Shown one piece after another: positions 1-7,950 of a stretch of 7,950 bases of DNA. The notes below the pieces were generated by a model. The model searched no databases, was not told the DNA's origin, and was given only the letters and a program-made list of their open reading frames with translations. Within the stretch, counting starts at the first letter, position 1. The number at the start of each line of letters is the position of its first letter. Source of the DNA: a virus (Duplodnaviria; Heunggongvirae; Uroviricota; Caudoviricetes); IMG/VR virus record IMGVR_UViG_3300029508_000049, positions 1-7,950 of that record. One strand, written 5' to 3'. Both the position numbers and the translations under genes were made by a program.

Positions 1-155
1 ATCCAGCGATATTCTGCCTGGGTGTGTTCACGCGCAATGAAGAACGTACAACCGGCTATCGCCCCGTAAGCCCAGTTCCCGGTAAAAAGACCAATCAGTA
101 GCTGCGCAGCCACAGCACAAAGCGCATGAAGGAAAGGTGTTATATCCATTTTCAT
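1..155 (-). CDS. Partial ORF (first 51 codons only) for a small hydrophobic, probably membrane, protein; continues beyond the window start
   Basis: Hand translation of the minus strand from ATG 155-153 (alternative ATG 149-147 with better spacing to a TAGGA motif): MKMDITPFLHALCAVAAQLLIGLFTGNWAYGAIAGCTFFIAREHTQAEYRW.. with no stop before the window edge. Missing from the ORF track, presumably on length. Hydrophobic stretch consistent with a transmembrane helix. Identity not recognised. Confidence 0.35.
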   Translation of the reverse strand, partial: MKMDITPFLHALCAVAAQLLIGLFTGNWAYGAIAGCTFFIAREHTQAEYRW

Positions 156-161
156 CCTACC

Positions 162-185
162 CAATAAAACGGGGCGCTCGGCCCC
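162..185 (-). terminator. Rho-independent terminator after the tail fibre operon
   Basis: Minus-strand RNA: GGGGC-CGAGC-GCCCC hairpin (171-185) followed by GUUUUAUUG (162-170), beginning 7 nt after the orf346 stop. The plus strand also has an A/T-rich tail (ttaatattattt), so it could act bidirectionally. Confidence 0.55.
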
Positions 186-191
186 TTAATA

Positions 192-1232
192 TTATTTAGA
201 CGCAAGCGCCGCCTCAATTACAGATAATCTTTGTCTTAATTCTGCGTTTTCTTCTTCCAGTGCTGTTATTCTGTCGTCTGACTCTCTGGCTACCTGAACA
301 AGCAAGCCAGTAACACCAGAATAATCTACTGTGTAATAACGTTCACCTTCTTCACCTTCCGATCCGCTCGCACCGTCCTGATATTTCATTGCGGAACCTA
401 CAACTTCTGGGATTGCTTCCAGAGCTTCCTGTGCAATGACACCAGCATAGGGCATACCGTTTTCTTTAAGCGTGTATGTATAGCCGTTCATTTTACGGAT
501 GCGGTCGGTTGCATTATCGATCACCTGAATGTTGTCTTTCAGATCCCGGTCGGAATGCTGGTTAAATGCGGTGGCATGACATGCACCATTAACGCTTAAC
601 ATATAGGTGTTATCGGTATTTTTCTGCGCATAGAACATATAAGCGCCACCATCAACACCGACTTCATAAACAACAGGACGGCTGGAATTTCCCCATAATA
701 ACGTCGACACACCAGAATACGCCGTACCTTGCGTGTTTAGTGTCATGGTCGACCCGTGATTAGCATATTTGATCTGCAATGAGTCTGTATTATCAAACTT
801 AATAAGCGCGTTACTTCCCCGCACACCATACGACATGAGACAGTTCCCCATCTTAAGGTAACCATCACTGCCTGGAAAAATTAAAGTTCCTCCGTAAAGA
901 TCACTAAAGTCCCAAAAGATACCTTTTGTCCCGTTATGTGTGACGATCCTCGTCATTGTATCTTTAGTACCATCAATATTTTTTCTGGTATATATGTCAC
1001 TATAAGCGTTTTCCGTTTCACCAGTCTTATTTGACAAATGCAGCTTACCGCTGAATATAGTTCCAGTTGTTGGCAATGTTTTTTGATCATAGATTACATT
1101 GCAATAACCATTCCATGTTGTTTTATTGTCTACATAAGATTTTGTTGCGTAGCTTCCTTGATCGTTTTTTAATTTGCTAACGTCGGATTTTAGCGTTTTG
1201 ATGTCATCAGGAATTACTGTCGATGTAGCCAT
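192..1232 (-). CDS. Second tail fibre / fibre-tip protein with C-terminal intramolecular chaperone auto-processing domain (peptidase S74-like)
   Basis: 346-aa ORF, ATG 1232-1230, stop TAA 194-192. N-terminal part has a tail-fibre-type motif (SYATKSYVDNK) and is Gly/Thr/Asn/Tyr-rich as in beta-rich fibre tips. C-terminal about 120 aa (from ..NQHSDRDLKDNIQVIDNATDRIRKMNGYTYTLKENG..GVIAQEALEAIPEVV..YTVDYSGVTGLLVQVARESDDRITALEEENAELRQRL) shows the hallmark Ser...Lys dyad spacing (S227, K232) and GxIAQE / VDY motifs of endosialidase/T5 pb1-type intramolecular chaperone domains. Confidence 0.85.
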   Translation of the reverse strand: MATSTVIPDDIKTLKSDVSKLKNDQGSYATKSYVDNKTTWNGYCNVIYDQKTLPTTGTIFSGKLHLSNKTGETENAYSDIYTRKNIDGTKDTMTRIVTHNGTKGIFWDFSDLYGGTLIFPGSDGYLKMGNCLMSYGVRGSNALIKFDNTDSLQIKYANHGSTMTLNTQGTAYSGVSTLLWGNSSRPVVYEVGVDGGAYMFYAQKNTDNTYMLSVNGACHATAFNQHSDRDLKDNIQVIDNATDRIRKMNGYTYTLKENGMPYAGVIAQEALEAIPEVVGSAMKYQDGASGSEGEEGERYYTVDYSGVTGLLVQVARESDDRITALEEENAELRQRLSVIEAALASK

Positions 1233-1241
1233 TTTTCTTCC
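1233..1241 (-). promoter_or_regulatory. Shine-Dalgarno region for the 346-aa fibre gene
   Basis: Minus-strand sequence TGA-GGAAGAAAA-ATG: a GAGGAAG purine-rich motif overlaps the stop of the acidic ORF, 7 nt upstream of the ATG at 1232. Implies tight operon organisation fibre > orf93 > orf346. Confidence 0.5.
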
Positions 1242-1523
1242 TCACATCCAGCCACGAAGTTGATGCTCAACAGCAACCACGTATTCATCGAATAATGACG
1301 ATATTTGCGAATCATTAATGATGCGCACGTTTACAAAATATCCGTCTTCCTTAACACATACCGGTTCGCCATCTTCAGTCAGTTCTCCGGTTTCTTTGTA
1401 CACGTTACCTATCACGTCGATAAGAATATCATCCTGCATCGACTCATCATCATAATAGCCAATACTCTCCATAAAGGCCGAAAAGTCGGCCCTGTCTTCA
1501 AATTTGAGTGTTAAATCTTTCAT
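1242..1523 (-). CDS. Hypothetical small, highly acidic protein (93 aa), translationally coupled to the tail fibre gene; function unknown
   Basis: ATG at 1523-1521 overlaps the fibre stop in a TAATG arrangement; stop TGA at 1244-1242. By my count 22 D/E against 7 K/R in 93 residues. No family recognised by eye. GC about 40%, matching the flanking low-GC module. Confidence 0.55.
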   Translation of the reverse strand: MKDLTLKFEDRADFSAFMESIGYYDDESMQDDILIDVIGNVYKETGELTEDGEPVCVKEDGYFVNVRIINDSQISSLFDEYVVAVEHQLRGWM

Positions 1524-3895
1524 TAGATTGACTCCCCCACCTGAGCATCAGTCAATGCCTTGTGCCATATTCTGAAATTCCTGACATGACCAAATAAATG
1601 ACGTAACCCGGCTGTAGTCTGGCCTCCAATACGGATAATTGCGGTGTTCTGAATACAGGACCATGTGGTTTTTGTTTCGCTGGATATATGCCCGTTACTT
1701 ACTGAGCACGTAGACTGCTCTGACTTTACACGCATCCCCATAACCATTTTTTCAAGCGATGCGTTTTCGTTTACCCGTCTGTTAGCTCCTCCAATATCGC
1801 AATAAGGAAATCCGTCGTAATCTGTTGAACGACCGAAGCCAAGAATAATAGCCGCTCCGGTTTGATGACCGCCGGTATCAAAAACACGTGGCGCTGCATT
1901 TGGCGTTTTATACCAGTTCTTATGTACCTCACAAAGAACCGTAAAAGGAAGATTATAAAGATTATTCTTAATTGGAACTGTAACTATATCGCTTGCGCGG
2001 GTCGCCGCCGTCGCTCCTGATATAATAAAAGATGATACACAAGGCCCATCTTCTACTTGTGGGGTGGCCAGATAAATATAGTCACCAGATACGGTTGCCC
2101 CGCTCTGCTTAGGAGAATACTGTATCTGAGAGCCTATTTTTAACTCCCCATCAATTGCCTGAATTGTTGCCTCTGCAAAAATCCATCCGGTAGCTTCGTC
2201 CTTTCTGACTCTCGCTGTAATCCTTGAGGCAGCACCGCCTGTCATATTAATTTCAAGCGCTTGTGTATCAATATACGCATCACCAAGAAAAGTTGTTGCG
2301 CTACCGTCATATTTATCAAACCGGATACGCAACCTTACCTGCAGTTCTGTTTTAAAACGACATGAGGTTGTCACGTGTTTATTATCGCCTGAGACATCAA
2401 CTGACTTTGTTGCAGCAATTGATGCCATATTAATGGCTGAGGTTTGCCCAATCAGAGAATCGTTGCAGACAAACTTTCCATAGGTAAAACCAAAATTATC
2501 CGTCCCTGTTTCGGGCACATCCATATTTGACGATCGCCCCCAACTGGCAGGGCTTTCCGAATTGAGCATGTAGTTTGTTCTTTGCCCCTCAATAAGCAGG
2601 CCATCACGTTCAAATCGTGGCTCGTCAATGGCAGCCTCTGTCAGCACACCAGATTTGTTAATATAGGTTGCTTTCGATGCACGTTTAAACTTAACAATCT
2701 TGTCGCCAGGCATCGTTATTTCATCGTCACCAATAACAATTTTTTTATATGATGGCGAAAAGCCCGTAATCATATCCAGCGAATCGTTAAATGGTATCCA
2801 CACATCAGGCAGCGGCTGTAAGACATATTTATACGGCTCCGCAGCCTGGCTTGCGTACTCTCTGGCTGCATCTTCGCTTGCTTTAGCTGCCGTCTGGCTT
2901 GCTGCCGATGCTTTCGCTGAGTTCGCAGCCGCTGTTTCGCTCACCTTTGCGTTGGTTTCACTGGTTTTTGCTGCTTTTTGACTGTTAGCTGATGCAGTGG
3001 CAGAAGCAGCCGCCGCGCTTGCAGAACTGGCTGCGGCACTCTCGCTTTGGGCCGCTGCATCCTGACTGCTTTTCGCCGCAGTTTCACTGGCTTTGGCATT
3101 CGTTTCGCTGGTCTTCGCTGCCGTCTGGCTGGACTTTGCGTTAGTTTCACTCGTCTTCGCAGCTTTCTGGCTGTTAGCCGCAGCAGTTGCTGATCCAGCT
3201 GCTGAAGTCGCAGAACCGGCTGCCGCGCTCTCGCTTTGGGCTGCTGCAACCTGGCTGTTTTTTGCCGCAGTTTCACTGGCTTTGGCATTCGTTTCGCTGG
3301 TCTTCGCTGCCGTCTGGCTGGACTTTGCGTTGGTTTCGCTCGTCTTTGCGGCTGTCTCGCTGTTTTTCGCGTTGGTTTCTGATTTTTTGGCTGCTGTCGC
3401 GGAGTTTGCCGATGCAGTCTTTGAGGTCGCTGCCGCCTGTGCACTATTAGCTGCATTCGTTTCTGAGGTTTTCGCCGCGTTCTTTGATGATGCCGCTGCA
3501 GTTTCGGATTTCTTTGCCGCCGCTGCGCTCTGAGAGGCGGCTTCGGCGTTGCGTGCCACTTCTTCCACCATTGCCTCAAAACGACGCAATGCCTCCGGCA
3601 TGACATCATCTTCCGTCATGGCACCGAGAAAATCATTCAGCGTACCTGGTCTGGAACCTTCATAGACGGTAATGGTCCCGGCATGTGAAGGCGGAAAACC
3701 TTCAACCAGCAGGGTGACGCTGTACTGGCCATACTCAACATCCATGCTGTAACGCCCGGCTTCATCAGGATTTTCAGAGGCCAGCGTGTTCACCACCACA
3801 GTGGTACTGTTACGTTTTGCTTTCAGCTGGATTGTGCAGTTCTGTACCGGTTTTCCTGTGCCGTCTTTCAGTACACCAGAAATCTTTACTGTCAT
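1523..3895 (-). CDS. stf: Side tail fibre protein (lambda Stf-like N-terminal anchor, repetitive Ala-rich shaft, divergent low-GC distal domain with a possible LamG/ConA-like C-terminus)
   Basis: The ORF track opens at a GTG (3901) giving MNMTVK..; I place the start at the in-frame ATG 3895-3893 (MTVKISGVLKDGTGKPVQNCTIQLKAKRNSTTVVVNTLASENPDEAGRYSMDVEYGQYSV..), which matches the lambda Stf N-terminus (MAVKISGVLKDG..) as I recall it. Stop TAA at 1525-1523. The middle is low-complexity A/S/T/K/E-rich with tandem repeats. The C-terminus ..LFGHVRNFRIWHKALTDAQVGESI resembles the terminal motif of LamG-like jelly-roll domains. Confidence 0.88.
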   Translation of the reverse strand: MTVKISGVLKDGTGKPVQNCTIQLKAKRNSTTVVVNTLASENPDEAGRYSMDVEYGQYSVTLLVEGFPPSHAGTITVYEGSRPGTLNDFLGAMTEDDVMPEALRRFEAMVEEVARNAEAASQSAAAAKKSETAAASSKNAAKTSETNAANSAQAAATSKTASANSATAAKKSETNAKNSETAAKTSETNAKSSQTAAKTSETNAKASETAAKNSQVAAAQSESAAAGSATSAAGSATAAANSQKAAKTSETNAKSSQTAAKTSETNAKASETAAKSSQDAAAQSESAAASSASAAAASATASANSQKAAKTSETNAKVSETAAANSAKASAASQTAAKASEDAAREYASQAAEPYKYVLQPLPDVWIPFNDSLDMITGFSPSYKKIVIGDDEITMPGDKIVKFKRASKATYINKSGVLTEAAIDEPRFERDGLLIEGQRTNYMLNSESPASWGRSSNMDVPETGTDNFGFTYGKFVCNDSLIGQTSAINMASIAATKSVDVSGDNKHVTTSCRFKTELQVRLRIRFDKYDGSATTFLGDAYIDTQALEINMTGGAASRITARVRKDEATGWIFAEATIQAIDGELKIGSQIQYSPKQSGATVSGDYIYLATPQVEDGPCVSSFIISGATAATRASDIVTVPIKNNLYNLPFTVLCEVHKNWYKTPNAAPRVFDTGGHQTGAAIILGFGRSTDYDGFPYCDIGGANRRVNENASLEKMVMGMRVKSEQSTCSVSNGHISSETKTTWSCIQNTAIIRIGGQTTAGLRHLFGHVRNFRIWHKALTDAQVGESI
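2882..3394. repeat. In-frame tandem repeat, 189-bp period (63 aa), about 2 full copies plus degenerate flanking partial copies, inside the tail fibre shaft
   Basis: DNA block gtttcactggctttggcattcgtttcgctggtcttcgctgccgtctggctggactttgcgtt occurs at 3081 and again at 3270 (offset 189). Protein copies: KTSETNAKSSQTAAKTSETNAKASETAAKNSQVAAAQSESAAAGSATSAAGSATAAANSQKAA and KTSETNAKSSQTAAKTSETNAKASETAAKSSQDAAAQSESAAASSASAAAASATASANSQKAA, with a shorter SETNAK/SETAAK sub-periodicity. Confidence 0.75.
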
Positions 3896-3906
3896 ATTCA
3901 CCCCAC

Positions 3907-3933
3907 AAAAAAGCCCGCCTGAACCGGCGGGCT
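3907..3933 (-). terminator. Rho-independent terminator downstream of lom, immediately upstream of the tail fibre gene
   Basis: Minus-strand RNA: GCCCGCC-GGUUCA-GGCGGGC (perfect 7-bp GC-rich stem, 3913-3919 paired with 3926-3932) followed by UUUUUU (complement of the A6 run at 3907-3912). Starts 27 nt after the lom stop and ends about 12 nt before the fibre ATG. Confidence 0.65.
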
Positions 3934-3959
3934 GTCATAACACTGTCTTACCTGGCTAA

Positions 3960-4583
3960 TCAGAACTTATAACCGACACCCACGATGAAACCGTCAGTGC
4001 GCCAGTCGCCACTGCCGGAACCTTCATAAGCAAGGTCAATAACCACCGTCTCTACGGGACTGAACTGAATCCCGGCATTCCAGGCCGGCGACAGATGACG
4101 CGCAGTATGGCCATCACTGGCGGTGGTGGTCTCCTTCACATACCCCGGTTTCACTTCATCATGCCGGTAATCCTGAACACTGTCAGACCAGCGGGTGTAC
4201 GCCATCCCGGCCATGCCATAGAGACTGACCCGCTCACTGAGCTGCCAGACAGGGCCGGCCATCAGACTGACATAACGACCGCGCAGACTTTCATGATGGA
4301 AGGTATTTTCACCCGTCTTCATCGTGTCACTTTTCTTCACCGATGCATAACTCAGCGCGACAATGCCGCCCAGGTGATCCGTGAACTCATAACGGTATTT
4401 CACGTTAATCCCTTTTAAATCACCTGCACGCGCACCGGTACCGGACAATGCCGGTACGCCGCCCGGGTGAACCTGAGCATATCCCACGGAAAATGCACCG
4501 TGTCCGCTTTCAGCCTGTGCAGGAAGGGAAATGCCTGTCAGCAGTGCGGTCCAGAATAAAATGGCTCCGTATAAATGTCGCAT
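3960..4583 (-). CDS. lom: Lom/Ail-family outer-membrane beta-barrel protein (lysogenic-conversion 'moron')
   Basis: 207-aa ORF, ATG at 4583-4581 preceded by GAGAGG about 7 nt upstream. N-terminal signal peptide MRHLYGAILFWTALLTGISLPAQA followed by AESGHG. Strong similarity to lambda Lom as I recall it (GINVKYRYE, HESLRGRYVS, AYEGSGSGDWRTDGFIVGVGYKF), and a C-terminal aromatic residue (..YKF) typical of outer-membrane barrels. Confidence 0.93.
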   Translation of the reverse strand: MRHLYGAILFWTALLTGISLPAQAESGHGAFSVGYAQVHPGGVPALSGTGARAGDLKGINVKYRYEFTDHLGGIVALSYASVKKSDTMKTGENTFHHESLRGRYVSLMAGPVWQLSERVSLYGMAGMAYTRWSDSVQDYRHDEVKPGYVKETTTASDGHTARHLSPAWNAGIQFSPVETVVIDLAYEGSGSGDWRTDGFIVGVGYKF

Positions 4584-4607
4584 GATGACCTCTCGTTTTC
4601 AGTCAAT

Positions 4608-4631
4608 AAAAAAGGCACCTCCTGAGGTGCC
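4608..4631 (-). terminator. Intrinsic-terminator-like hairpin plus U-tract between J and lom (minus-strand sense)
   Basis: Read on the minus strand: GGCACC(UC)-loop-(GA)GGUGCC stem (4614-4631) followed directly by UUUUUUAUU (complement of the A-run at 4608-4613). Lies in the 67-nt J-lom spacer, ending about 25 nt before the lom start codon. Confidence 0.5.
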
Positions 4632-4650
4632 CGTCCGGGTTAATAAACCG

Positions 4651-7600
4651 TCAGCTGATACTGATCCCTGCCGTGGATTTTTTCATGACCACAACCAGTA
4701 AATCACTGATGTACGTTGTCGGCGTCCAGTTGTTCGCACCGGCCGACGACACATTAAACGTCAGGGTGACATGACCCCGCCCTGCCGGCATATCTATCAC
4801 CGATGAGAACACCCGGCTGACATCAGTTGCCGGTTCATGGAAAATCTCAACCCCGTTCTTCAGCACCTGCAGCTTACAGGTGGAATACCAGTACGACTGC
4901 TGATTCGGGCTGTTGAAATTCTGGTGTTTCGTCCCGCGAAACAGTACCGGGGGAATGATGATCTGCCGGTCGAAGCCCTGGTCATCGTAAACTGTGACGG
5001 TTACCGTCCCGCTGGCATAACTGTTATTCCGGGGAAAGGCTTTCCCCACCGTCTTCACCAGGTCGCCTTCAATCTGGTTTGCAGACAGTTTCCCTCTGAT
5101 GACACAGTTCTCGTTAATGGTGACATTATTGAGCGTGCCGGTATTCGCGGTAATTGCTCCGCTGATATCCGCGTTCCTGGCTGTCAGCTTCCCTTCCGGC
5201 GTCAGGGAAAACGTCGGGGGGTTGCCGGATGACGTGATACTCACCGCAAACAGTCGCTTCAGGAACACGTCGTTCATGAACAGCTGATTCCCCTGCGCCA
5301 CAAATAACGGCGTGCTGTTGCCGTTCTCCGGATTTATCATCGCGATACGGTCAGCCAGCAGCAGTATGTTGCTCAGTGGCTGGCCATCAGTATCCTCAAT
5401 CCCTGCACCAATCCCGGCCACATAGGGAATGCCGTCTTTCGTTTTTTGAACCTTCAGCATGTACAGCGCAGCCAGGTCATCATTTGTGTCCTTCTGCACG
5501 CGCTGTATCTGCTGAATGGTGGCGCTCTGGTCTTCCAGCGTTTTACTGACCGTCTGTGTGATTTCATTGCGGGTTTCGGTGATGGTGGTCTTCATCTCCG
5601 CCATCTCATCCGCAAGCTGGCTGTTGTCTATCAGCTCCCACAGCCCCTGAGCCAGATGCAGTTTTCCTATTTTTTCCCGAAACAGCCCCAGATACCCTTC
5701 TGCATCATTGCTGGCCCGGCCACTGGCTTCCACAAAAGCAGATTTCCCCACCAGGTTGACGCTGCGCACGTAAAACCAGAAATCCTTCCCGGGCTTAATG
5801 TGCGGGCCGGATACACTCCACTGACTGCCGGTCCCCAGATAACGGGCAGAGGTTTCCACCTGAGATGTGTCTGCGATTTTTGCCTCCGAAAACCAGAATT
5901 CAAACTGTACCGTCGGATCATACACCGCCAGCACCGGTACCGCCGTTATCTGAAAATACCCCGGCGTCAGTTCAATGGTGGCGGGTACCGCAGGTGCATT
6001 AATCCTGAACGTGGTGGTGGCCGGTTCGCCCTGCTGGCCATAACTGTTAATTGCCCTGACTGTCAGGGTGTATTCCCCGAGCGGCAGACCACTGAAACGA
6101 TGCTCTGTATCCGCAGTGATGGCGGTGGTCACCAGACGGCTGTCTTCTCCGCTTCCGCTGGTCAGGCGCAGACTGAAGCGCACACCCTTCACCACCCGCG
6201 GCGTGTCCCATTTCGCCTGTGCCAGATACTGACCGTCAGCCGCGCTCACCTCCACCGTCAGGTGCTGCACTGCCGGTGGAATAACGCTGTTCAGGGTGCC
6301 TGACTGCGGCTCAAAGCTGGCCCCGTTATCCACGATGGCTTCTTTTTCCGGTACGTGCTGCACTGCCGTGATGGCAAAGGTGCCGTCCGTGTTTTCCCGG
6401 ATGGAGACACAGCGGAACAGGCGACGACGCAGTGACGGCAGGGAGAGTCCCCATACACCGTATGTCTCCACACCATCAGGCAGGGTGCTGACCTGTATCC
6501 GGTCCGGCGCGGGGTGTGCAGTGATGGCCACGCTCACCGGCTTACCGCTGCCGTTAATCAGGTTCACCGCCGATGTACCTGTCTCCGGCAGGGTAACCTC
6601 ACGGTCCAGCGTCAGGGTGCGGGTGGCAGCATCAATGGACAGGACACGTCCGCCGGTCATAGTCCCGGCATAGTCGTTATCACAGATTTCAATAATGTCA
6701 CCCGGTGTGTGACGCAGCCCCTGTGACCCGAGCGTGAAGTCCACCGTCTGCGTTTCCAGCAGTTCGGTCTTTATCACCCACAGACCTGCACGGTGAGCCT
6801 GACCGCGGCTGGTACAGCCAAACGCATCCATCTTCAGCAGATTGCGTCCGTAGCGCAGTATGGCTTCCGTGTCTTCCACCAGTTCCGTGGAGGTCTGCCA
6901 GCCGTTCTGCGGGTCGGTGTAATTCACCTCCACCGCCGTGTGCCGGTCCTTCAGGGCACTGAAGCTGTAGCGGAACCCCACGCCGTTATCATCCACCACC
7001 ACATCGCTGTTGGTGTACGGCCACACCACATCCGACGGGCGGTCCTGAACGAACGTCAGCGTCTGACCGTTCCATACCGGCATACAGCGCATCGCAGAGC
7101 AGAAATCACTGAGAACGTCCCACGCCTTACGCTGTTGTGCCAGGTACGCATTAAAGGTCATCCGCGGCTCTGTGCCCCCGAAACCATCCGGGACCGTCTG
7201 GTCGCAGTACTGCCCGATGGCATACAGCGCCCACTTGTCCACATCCGCCGCCCCCAGACGTTTTCCCATGCCGTAGCGCGGGTGAGTCAGCATGTCCCAC
7301 AGACACCAGGCCGGATTGTTGCTGTATGCCGGTTTCAGACTGCCGTCCCAGATACCACTGTACGTGCGTTTTTCCGGGTCATAGTTTGACGGCACCTGGA
7401 TGATGCGACCGCGGATATGGTAGTTCACCGTCATCTGCTGGCCGCCGAACTGCTCCGCATCCACCTGCAGCCCCACAATGGCCGTGTTCGGGTAGCACTG
7501 TTTCACATCGATGATTTCGGTGTATGACGACCACAGCGTCTTATTCTGCAGCTGGTCCGTGGTGCTGTCCGCCGTCTCCCTGACCATCCGGATGTTAAAG

Positions 7601-7950
7601 GGCCGGGGAGGCAGATTATCCAGAATCACCGAGGCCAGGAACTGTGAGGTGGTCTTGCCGTTAATGGTGACGTCCTTTTCTGTCACCCAGTTACCGTTAC
7701 GCTGTAACTGAATCAGCAGGCGGACGGATGCCGGGTTACGGTCACCCTTTGAGGTGGTCTCCACCAGTGACTGCACCCCGAAGGTAACCCGCAGGCGGTC
7801 AATGTTCGCGGACGTAATGGTGCGCGTCACCGGTTTTGCCTTCGTCACTTCCACGCCCAGTCCGGTTTCAGCTCCGGAGGACTCAAAGCCTTCCGGTGGT
7901 GTCTGCTCCTGCTCCCCGGCACGCCAGACCGCGGTCACACCGTGTATCAC
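4651..7950 (-). CDS. J: Host specificity / tail tip attachment protein J (central tail fibre), partial: N-terminus lies beyond the window end
   Basis: Uninterrupted 1099-codon minus-strand frame running to the window edge; stop TGA at 4651-4653. The translation matches lambda J as I recall it along its length (e.g. [144 protein letters not shown]). The window begins about 60 residues into the lambda protein, so the leading M in the ORF track is a GTG at the window edge, not the true start. GC about 58% on a hand-counted 60-nt sample (7261-7320). Confidence 0.95.

Follow-up and report, generated by a model that had tools for sequence, protein, structure and literature searches.

The window analysed here is the whole stretch of 7,950 nucleotides (nt) of IMG/VR virus record IMGVR_UViG_3300029508_000049 (positions 1 to 7,950), which according to its open reading frame (ORF) list and domain searches is the tail end of a lambdoid prophage with all genes on the minus strand. 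Its side tail fibre gene stf (1523..3901) is most probably (roughly 80%) a composite of a lambdoid anchor, an Ala-rich repeat shaft and a distal host-recognition module that begins at Q362, and the distal module, a 93-amino-acid (aa) ORF and a second fibre with an S74 domain would together form a horizontally circulating cassette. The joint lies between L361, which ends at 2819, and Q362, which starts at 2818 (gene nt 1083/1084), upstream of QPLPDVWIPFNDSL, and the sequence comparisons show a recurrent module boundary that is exact to the nucleotide and a cassette shared horizontally by at least six phage lineages. The first-pass annotation had also proposed a mosaic gene with an abrupt identity break where the shaft meets the distal part, and this is borne out; divergence along the gene is not uniform, and a composition shift appears on formal calculation. 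Its placement of the break at 2860–2900 is not upheld, the recurrent break being found at 2819/2818, 42–82 nt further downstream.

The gene encodes 792 aa when read from a GTG at 3901 (PF08400, E = 6.3e-68; full-length match to phrog_1419), and residues are numbered here from this GTG, so that 2 has to be subtracted for deposited relatives, which begin at an ATG 6 nt downstream. The GTG is the choice of the ORF finder, while the Pfam match and the annotation of phage PhiR63_1 favour the downstream ATG, which gives a protein of 790 aa. The N-terminal virion-anchor domain ('Prophage tail fibre N-terminal', 3503..3895, aa 3–133) matches PF08400 with 227 bits against a cut-off of 26.6. The Ala/Ser/Thr-rich shaft, delimited by translation and composition, occupies 2819..3562 (aa 114–361), and the distal module (1526..2818, aa 362–792) opens with a conserved box (QPLPDVWIPFNDSLDMITGFSPSYKKIVIG; 2729..2818, aa 362–391), the AT-richest part of the gene, which begins QPLPDVWIPFNDSLDMITGF. 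All of these features are on the minus strand.

A megablast search of the window against 50,697 phage records gives two kinds of partial match: non-lambdoid phages match stf only from gene nt 1042–1084 on, while lambdoid matches end at gene nt 894, 1259–1329 or 1888. Homology with ESCO3 (Nonagvirus) begins at gene nt 1084 (95.9% over 1,693 nt), and the same starting point is found for VogelGryff (Seuratvirus, 82%), for a P2-like locus (L161, 94.9%) and for a T5-like locus (L162, 77.3%). Phage 21 matches from gene nt 1086 on (86%) and again over nt 1–473, with the shaft between these two parts unmatched. Homology with members of the Drexlerviridae starts at gene nt 1042–1072, i.e. 12–42 nt before Q362, that of Warwickvirus tunus at nt 1042. 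The unannotated 99.9-kb record MG065692.1, labelled 'Campylobacter phage C13', also carries the distal module (79.7% from gene nt 1084); either its host label is doubtful or the phage is T5-like. Compared base by base, the sequences are unalignable up to the TTA codon of L361, and from the CAG codon of Q362 on the window is 100% identical to VogelGryff, about 93% to phage 21 and about 75–80% to ESCO3. At gene nt 1084, nucleotide identity passes from unalignable to 77–100%.

The same boundary is seen at the protein level. In a library of 1.84 billion cluster representatives (50% identity), 2,067 relatives of the distal module are found at E ≤ 1e-3, of which 447 reach E ≤ 1e-10; in about 121 of the best 150 (our own count) the match begins at query residue 1–5, although it begins anywhere from position 7 to 1079 of these proteins, which are 343–1,481 aa long. 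At least seven types of N-terminal anchor are fused to the module among the 121 close relatives, and three unrelated linkers stand directly before Q362, namely AEPYxxxL in lambdoid and Drexlerviridae fibres, AAN[ND][AT]P[ED]I in Queuovirinae and T5-like fibres, and LEDARKII in P2-like fibres. A protein search with the distal part also finds the module behind fibre N-termini of the P2 type (PF12571/PF03406), where the Ala-rich shaft is missing, and in a 108-kb contig; the contigs concerned have P2-like baseplate genes (Baseplate_J, Tail_P2_I) or T5-like genes (pb9, pb4, LtfC). One and the same module is thus carried by lambdoid phages, Jouyvirus (phage 21), Nonagvirus, Seuratvirus and Warwickvirus, and occurs in P2-like and T5-like contexts. 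The break within the gene is abrupt beyond rate variation and the module recurs in unrelated backbones, as expected of a mosaic module.

Compared with ESCO3, amino-acid identity is 30% for the anchor, 25% for the shaft and 95.6% for the distal part, and 92% of the third codon positions are identical; the corresponding amino-acid values for phage 21 are 87, 36 and 71%, so that here the shaft varies between two flanks that are conserved. Anchor identity with Queuovirinae fibres is 30–32%, and across families the shaft ranges from 25 to 36% and the distal part from 71 to 96%. Given the pattern seen with ESCO3, rapid change of a low-complexity shaft does not suffice to explain the junction away. 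This bears on an explanation without any recombination, in which the composition step is a codon consequence of an Ala/Ser/Thr-rich coiled shaft beside a globular domain and the identity break results from rapid low-complexity divergence. Low-complexity shafts do change length fast (the relatives are 685–856 aa long), but the distal modules are 95–100% identical in nucleotides, third positions included, between phages whose anchors are only 19–32% identical in protein, and the same module stands behind P2-type and T5-type N-termini without upstream homology. We regard this explanation as very improbable.

Composition itself tells in part for such a codon effect. The guanine-plus-cytosine (GC) contents noted in the first-pass annotation are reproduced on recalculation (0.561 in 2882–3394 and 0.367 in 2701–2760), and the protein does change at the end of the shaft from ...AAKASEDAAREYASQAAEPYKYV to a non-repetitive distal part. 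The switch, described there as taking place within a few tens of bases, is instead spread over about 100–150 nt, with a GC content of 0.57 at 2850–2949, 0.49 at 2750–2849 and 0.39 at 2700–2799 in 100-nt windows. The interval 2860–2900 itself has 56% GC, and the centre of the switch lies outside it, downstream. Over the whole regions, GC content is 56% in the shaft and 44.5% in the distal part. The best changepoint across stf, from a single maximum-likelihood fit, is at 2833 (aa 356), where the log-likelihood ratio of 13.9 is above the maximum of 6.5 in 200 shuffles; the GC shift therefore exceeds chance.

At the three codon positions (GC1/GC2/GC3), GC content is 0.52/0.67/0.50 in the shaft (aa 114–361) and 0.49/0.46/0.38 in the distal part (aa 362–792), so that the gap in GC2 is far above that in GC3. 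Amino-acid content combined with pooled codon usage predicts a GC content of 0.576 versus 0.501, i.e. about 7.5 of the 11.7 points (~64%), and about two thirds of the GC step is an effect of the Ala/Ser/Thr-rich protein. The synonymous part, a drop of GC3 from 0.50 to 0.38, is poorly localised (likelihood plateau at aa 300–470) but still significant (permutation p ~0.007). Low GC content continues through the 93-aa ORF and the second fibre (GC 0.41 and 0.42; GC3 0.43 and 0.38), while the GC3 of the neighbouring J and lom is 0.70 and 0.56, and the loci fetched from non-lambdoid phages and a P2-like prophage have GC contents of 0.38–0.45. The GC and GC3 of the cassette fit the lower-GC loci that carry it, unlike those of lambdoid J, lom and the 5' part of stf, which hints at the direction of transfer and is no proof of it. 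The GC step would accordingly combine the Ala/Ser/Thr codon bias of the shaft with a lower synonymous GC content of an imported cassette. A composition artefact as the sole cause is ruled out by the identity pattern and stays a partial cause of the GC step.

The flagged interval 2860..2900 (minus strand, aa 334–348; ASQTAAKASEDAARE) is the terminal non-repeated stretch of the shaft. A 400-nt probe centred on the junction matches 1,489 of 5,426 complete Escherichia coli genomes, and an evenly spaced sample of 60 records was inspected. Ten of the 60 matches start at probe position 201–203 (gene nt 1084–1086) and 14 end at probe position 265–292 (gene nt 1148–1175), while none breaks at probe position 119–159, which corresponds to 2860–2900. 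Lambdoid alleles keep 83–100% identity straight through the interval. The only event seen inside it is a 16-aa deletion (aa 337–352, TAAKASEDAAREYASQ, window 2846–2893) in protein cluster P0001, and the only homology that starts at its edge is that of the Drexlerviridae (gene nt 1042–1045, window 2857–2860). The P0001 deletion sits exactly between two 9-nt direct repeats GCAAGCCAG and resembles a micro-homology deletion.

The first-pass annotation had read this interval as the junction and the conserved repeat shaft as the homology arm for exchange of the receptor-binding end. The shaft is indeed 93–100% identical in nucleotides among lambdoid alleles, some of which recombine inside it: PhiR47_1 is 95.6% identical up to gene nt 894 (range 894–969) and then has a diverged shaft end and a diverged distal homologue starting PPLPDIWLPLNDSLEAITGY, changepoints cluster at aa 271–280 and 311–320, and a lambdoid-type shaft is found on other anchors in proteins P0073 and P0096. 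The Drexlerviridae homology that begins at the edge of the interval also favours it. Against it, no lambdoid allele and none of the sampled E. coli records breaks within 2860–2900; in five unrelated backbones homology is limited at 2818 with an unalignable shaft side; the P2-like fusions have no such shaft; and the crossovers within the shaft fall in its tandem repeats, 40–190 nt upstream of 2860–2900. In cross-family swaps the shaft is the non-homologous side and not the conserved arm, and for 2860–2900 this reading, quite improbable in our estimate, is largely refuted.

Lambdoid alleles with the shaft of the window show where identity falls instead: it is unbroken across both 2860–2900 and 2818, and drops at gene nt ~1141, ~1201–1231 or ~1321. 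The residues of the first 30 codons of the distal module, i.e. the box, are invariant or nearly so in 121 sequences, while its nucleotide identity between distant lineages is 70–87%. ESCO3 and a lambdoid prophage locus with a 792-aa Stf and a PF08400 anchor (L112) are 98.4% identical over 2,556 nt from exactly Q362, with 20 mismatches in the first 87 nt and none in the following 472 nt. The window and VogelGryff are 100% identical over gene nt 1084–1293 and only ~60–70% identical afterwards. A changepoint histogram was made from 112 distinct IMG/VR alleles, which were selected because they resemble one or the other half of the gene and which come from related loci, so that its counts are not event frequencies; it has 17 changepoints at gene nt 1141–1170, in keeping with the drop of other lambdoid alleles at nt ~1141–1175. 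Shaft clusters are found at aa 211–220, 241–250, 271–280 and 311–320, and further hot spots at aa 31–50, 381–410, 441–470, 601–650 and 741–770. The gene is finely mosaic along its whole length; crossovers and length changes among lambdoid alleles fall in the tandem repeats of the shaft (~2940–3090), while recent crossovers map to the 3' end of the ~90-nt box, which is likely the left homology arm for cassette swaps.

The unit exchanged is larger than the first-pass annotation had supposed. It is not confined to the end of stf but also includes the 93-aa ORF and part or all of the second fibre gene. The 93-aa ORF (1242..1523, minus strand; phrog_1361) has no Pfam or NCBIfam match, and the distal module always has an ORF of ~92–93 aa directly behind it, as in ESCO3, VogelGryff, tunus, phage 21 and the T5-like contig. 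The second fibre (192..1232, minus strand; 346 aa, phrog_4563) has an S74 intramolecular-chaperone domain near its C-terminus (Peptidase_S74, PF13884, E = 6.3e-14, aa 227–278); in most backbones an S74-type fibre is the next gene after the small ORF, as in ESCO3, in VogelGryff and in the T5-like contig, while tunus and phage 21 have other genes there. The block common with the virulent Nonagvirus ESCO3 (1127..2818, minus strand; blastn, 95.9%) takes in the distal module and the 93-aa ORF and reaches over ~35 codons of the second fibre, and the homology block of PhiR63_1 also ends at ~1127. Positions 938–1126 of the second fibre are hypervariable, and homology resumes at ~937 and runs to the end of the S74 domain. 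This arrangement suggests a conserved docking N-terminus with a variable binding centre, and the second fibre may dock via this N-terminus onto the Stf distal module. In L112 the block shared with ESCO3 extends to the full 2,556 nt, and the comparison shows recent exchange of a near-identical cassette between a virulent and a temperate phage.

A mechanism consistent with these data can be proposed. A cassette of ~1.7–2.6 kb would circulate among lambdoid prophages, phage 21-type, Queuovirinae, Drexlerviridae, T5-like and P2-like phages. Whenever the module was first fused to a new kind of anchor or shaft, this would have happened by a rare non-homologous or micro-homology join, and such joins may have survived because they fell on a domain boundary between the helical shaft and the beta-rich globular part. 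Alleles would later be swapped by homologous recombination, probably of relaxed fidelity through phage Rad52-type recombinases, with the ~90-nt box as the left arm (and the shaft in addition in lambdoid–lambdoid swaps), crossovers resolving at the 3' end of the box (~2730–2760) or in conserved patches within the module, and a right arm in the conserved 5' or 3' end of the second fibre gene. Lambda Red recombines short, ~12%-diverged stf/tfa homologies with prophages (PMC3945230). No Chi site is present anywhere in the window.

Site-specific switching of the variable end by a Din-family DNA invertase (Mu G, P1 C, e14 P type), with the joint as the crossover site, would be another route to such a boundary, and old cross-family exchange of stf has been ascribed to invertases (PMC3945230). 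PhiR63_1, the closest phage, has a PinQ/PinR-type serine recombinase ~1.9 kb downstream of its fibre genes (locus L160, 8274–8864). Yet the crossover core AAACCNNGGTTT is not found near the junction; its sole match in the window, with one mismatch, is at 4140 in lom, which is fewer than expected by chance. No inverted repeats flank the distal module, the single weak 18-nt pair (1631/2486) lying inside it, the three cassette genes have one orientation, and the window contains no alternative inverted fibre ends. We consider this route extremely improbable, and invertase switching, without crossover core and flanking inverted repeats, was ruled out.

A more far-reaching version of the cassette proposal can also be put forward. 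The ~90-nt QPLPDVW box might be a maintained universal joint, a linker as the modular theory of phage evolution understands it, and through it a host-range cassette of three genes would pass freely, and in recent times, between virulent (Queuovirinae, Drexlerviridae, T5-like) and temperate (lambdoid, P2-like) phages, with the Stf distal module docking the co-transferred second fibre instead of binding the receptor. We hold this to be unlikely.

Several points weigh against the composite fibre and circulating cassette as proposed above. The shared homology limit at Q362 could in part mark where similarity ceases to be recognisable at the border of a domain, and not the physical crossover point of each fusion. 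The nucleotide identity of the box between distant lineages is no higher than its invariant peptide gives, so that the box may serve as an arm by accident of protein constraint; nothing points to selection on it at the DNA level. Breakpoints are all deduced from present-day sequences, with no recombination event directly observed, and the counts of loci and records are not counts of independent events, since related phages have their joints by common descent. The direction of transfer is suggested by composition alone, and the structural model only weakly supports a helix-to-globular transition at aa ~353–362.

That model was made with AlphaFold2 for aa 301–792 from a shallow alignment of 30 sequences with 74–95% identity to the query, and its mean predicted local distance difference test score (pLDDT) is 50. 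With low confidence, the shaft is helical to about aa 353 (helix at model residues 2–53); a confident beta core is confined to aa ~450–618 (pLDDT 80–93), and the box and the C-terminal 170 aa are not modelled. The beta-sandwich core of the distal module (1994..2596, minus strand, aa 436–636) matches the 'GTA head spike fiber' domain of NCBIfam (NF048003, 'phage head spike fiber domain') with 50 bits against a cut-off of 36, over model positions 1–181 of 182. By phmmer, Stf aa 405–651 aligns to residues 45–286 of Rcc01080 of the gene transfer agent RcGTA (E = 5.5e-7), a protein that binds capsular polysaccharide (PMC7296036, PMC10218006); a glycan-binding role is therefore suggested for the Stf distal module and is plausible by analogy. 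The sole relative in the PDB by sequence is 6tb9 (Rcc01080), of which just residues 2–10 are resolved, so that it gives no fold information. Foldseek returns weak matches of the low-confidence model to Pseudomonas phage tail fibres and carbohydrate-binding modules, which can serve as a hint only. Stf aa 740–792 (1526–1684, …RHLFGHVRNFRIWHKALTDAQV) has a sub-threshold match to Laminin_G_3, which belongs to the ConA-like lectin superfamily (19 bits where the cut-off is 27.6; E = 0.0014).

The remaining features of the window are those of a lambdoid tail region. Upstream of stf lie J (4651–7950, cut by the end of the window; ORF list) and lom (3960–4583; PF06316), both on the minus strand, and the gene order J, lom, stf is the same in lambda, phage 21, PhiR47_1 and PhiR63_1. 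The PF08400 anchor and the position directly downstream of J and lom are those of a lambda-type Stf; a C-terminus of the lambda/T4 gp37 type and a downstream Tfa are absent, and blastp gives no similarity to lambda orf-314. Lambda nucleotide homology to stf ends at gene nt 356. The Stf gene of Escherichia phage PhiR63_1 matches at 98.7% nucleotide identity and those of phages Tritos, HannyBb and 2G7b at 97–98%, so that the gene is already present in GenBank phages at 98–99%. A tandem repeat found by Tandem Repeats Finder (2945..3364, minus strand) builds part of the shaft, with a 189-nt unit present 2.2 times at 85% identity and nested periods of 42 and 21 nt. In most IMG/VR relatives homology begins at 4046, leaving the last ~87 nt of lom in common, which resembles a further mosaic joint. 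None of the 5,426 complete E. coli genomes carries the whole window at ≥95% identity, the best reaching 87–91% over 77–88% of its length; the J region is the unusual part of this prophage, while the stf cassette is common in these genomes.

The case is one of the long-known modular exchange of tail-fibre ends and conceptually adds nothing beyond established modularity. Tail-fibre mosaicism among unrelated phages (P2 H, Mu S/S', P1 S, lambda stf/tfa and T4 gp37/38) was reportedly described by Haggard-Ljungquist in 1992 and Sandmeier in 1994, to whose work PMC3945230 refers. As in those classical systems, N-termini here are lineage-specific, C-terminal recognition parts and accessory genes are found across families, and the joints lie within the fibre gene. 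Unlike them, the module resembles the GTA head spike fibre and is followed by a 93-aa ORF and an S74 fibre; it is not of the gp37/Tfa type and has no invertase sites. Neither the box motif nor the name of the NCBIfam domain turned up in the literature searched, and the precise L361/Q362 joint, the box, the three-gene cassette and the Nonagvirus/lambdoid near-identity are apparently unrecorded.

Among better characterised counterparts, the head spike fibre Rcc01080 (GhsB) of RcGTA is related by sequence homology and through NF048003, but its sequence identity is low, and in the gene transfer agent it decorates the head as a single copy, whereas the domain here forms the distal half of a side tail fibre. 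The lateral tail fibre loci of BASEL phages (Drexlerviridae, Dhillonvirus, Queuovirinae and T5-like) are also variable downstream of a conserved 5' end, and in those of Drexlerviridae and Queuovirinae conservation is confined to the far 5' end of the first gene (PMC8594841). VogelGryff (Bas25), itself a BASEL phage, carries this very module (82% identical in nucleotides, 100% over the first 210 nt). Unlike those loci, the present one belongs to a temperate lambdoid backbone, and its fibre has an anchor of the PF08400 kind and a long shaft of AAKTSETNAK repeats.

Engineered lambda Stf chimeras, in which the Ur-lambda Stf N-terminus was joined to P2, K1F, K5 or KL106 fibre ends (PMC11338833), demonstrate functionally that distal ends of foreign origin can be carried by a lambdoid Stf anchor and shaft, and the joint at 2818/2819 is their natural counterpart. 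The fusion points of the chimeras are artificial and were chosen by their authors, while the joint described here is natural and recurs in many backbones. L361/Q362 thus offers an exact, naturally validated splice point for chimeric side tail fibres on a lambdoid chassis, for which the distal module, the 93-aa ORF and the S74 fibre should be moved as one unit.

Recombination of lambda with defective prophages at stf/tfa is similar in that Red-type annealing acts on short diverged homologies and leaves fine mosaics of ~100 bp or more (PMC3945230). The same 2014 study found no recent temperate–virulent mosaics among coliphages, whereas in the present comparison 2.56 kb of a virulent Nonagvirus recur in a lambdoid prophage at 98.4% identity, including 472 consecutive identical bases. 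Such recent exchange of host-range genes between virulent and temperate phages would bear on host-range prediction and on gene-flow assumptions for therapeutic (virulent) phages.

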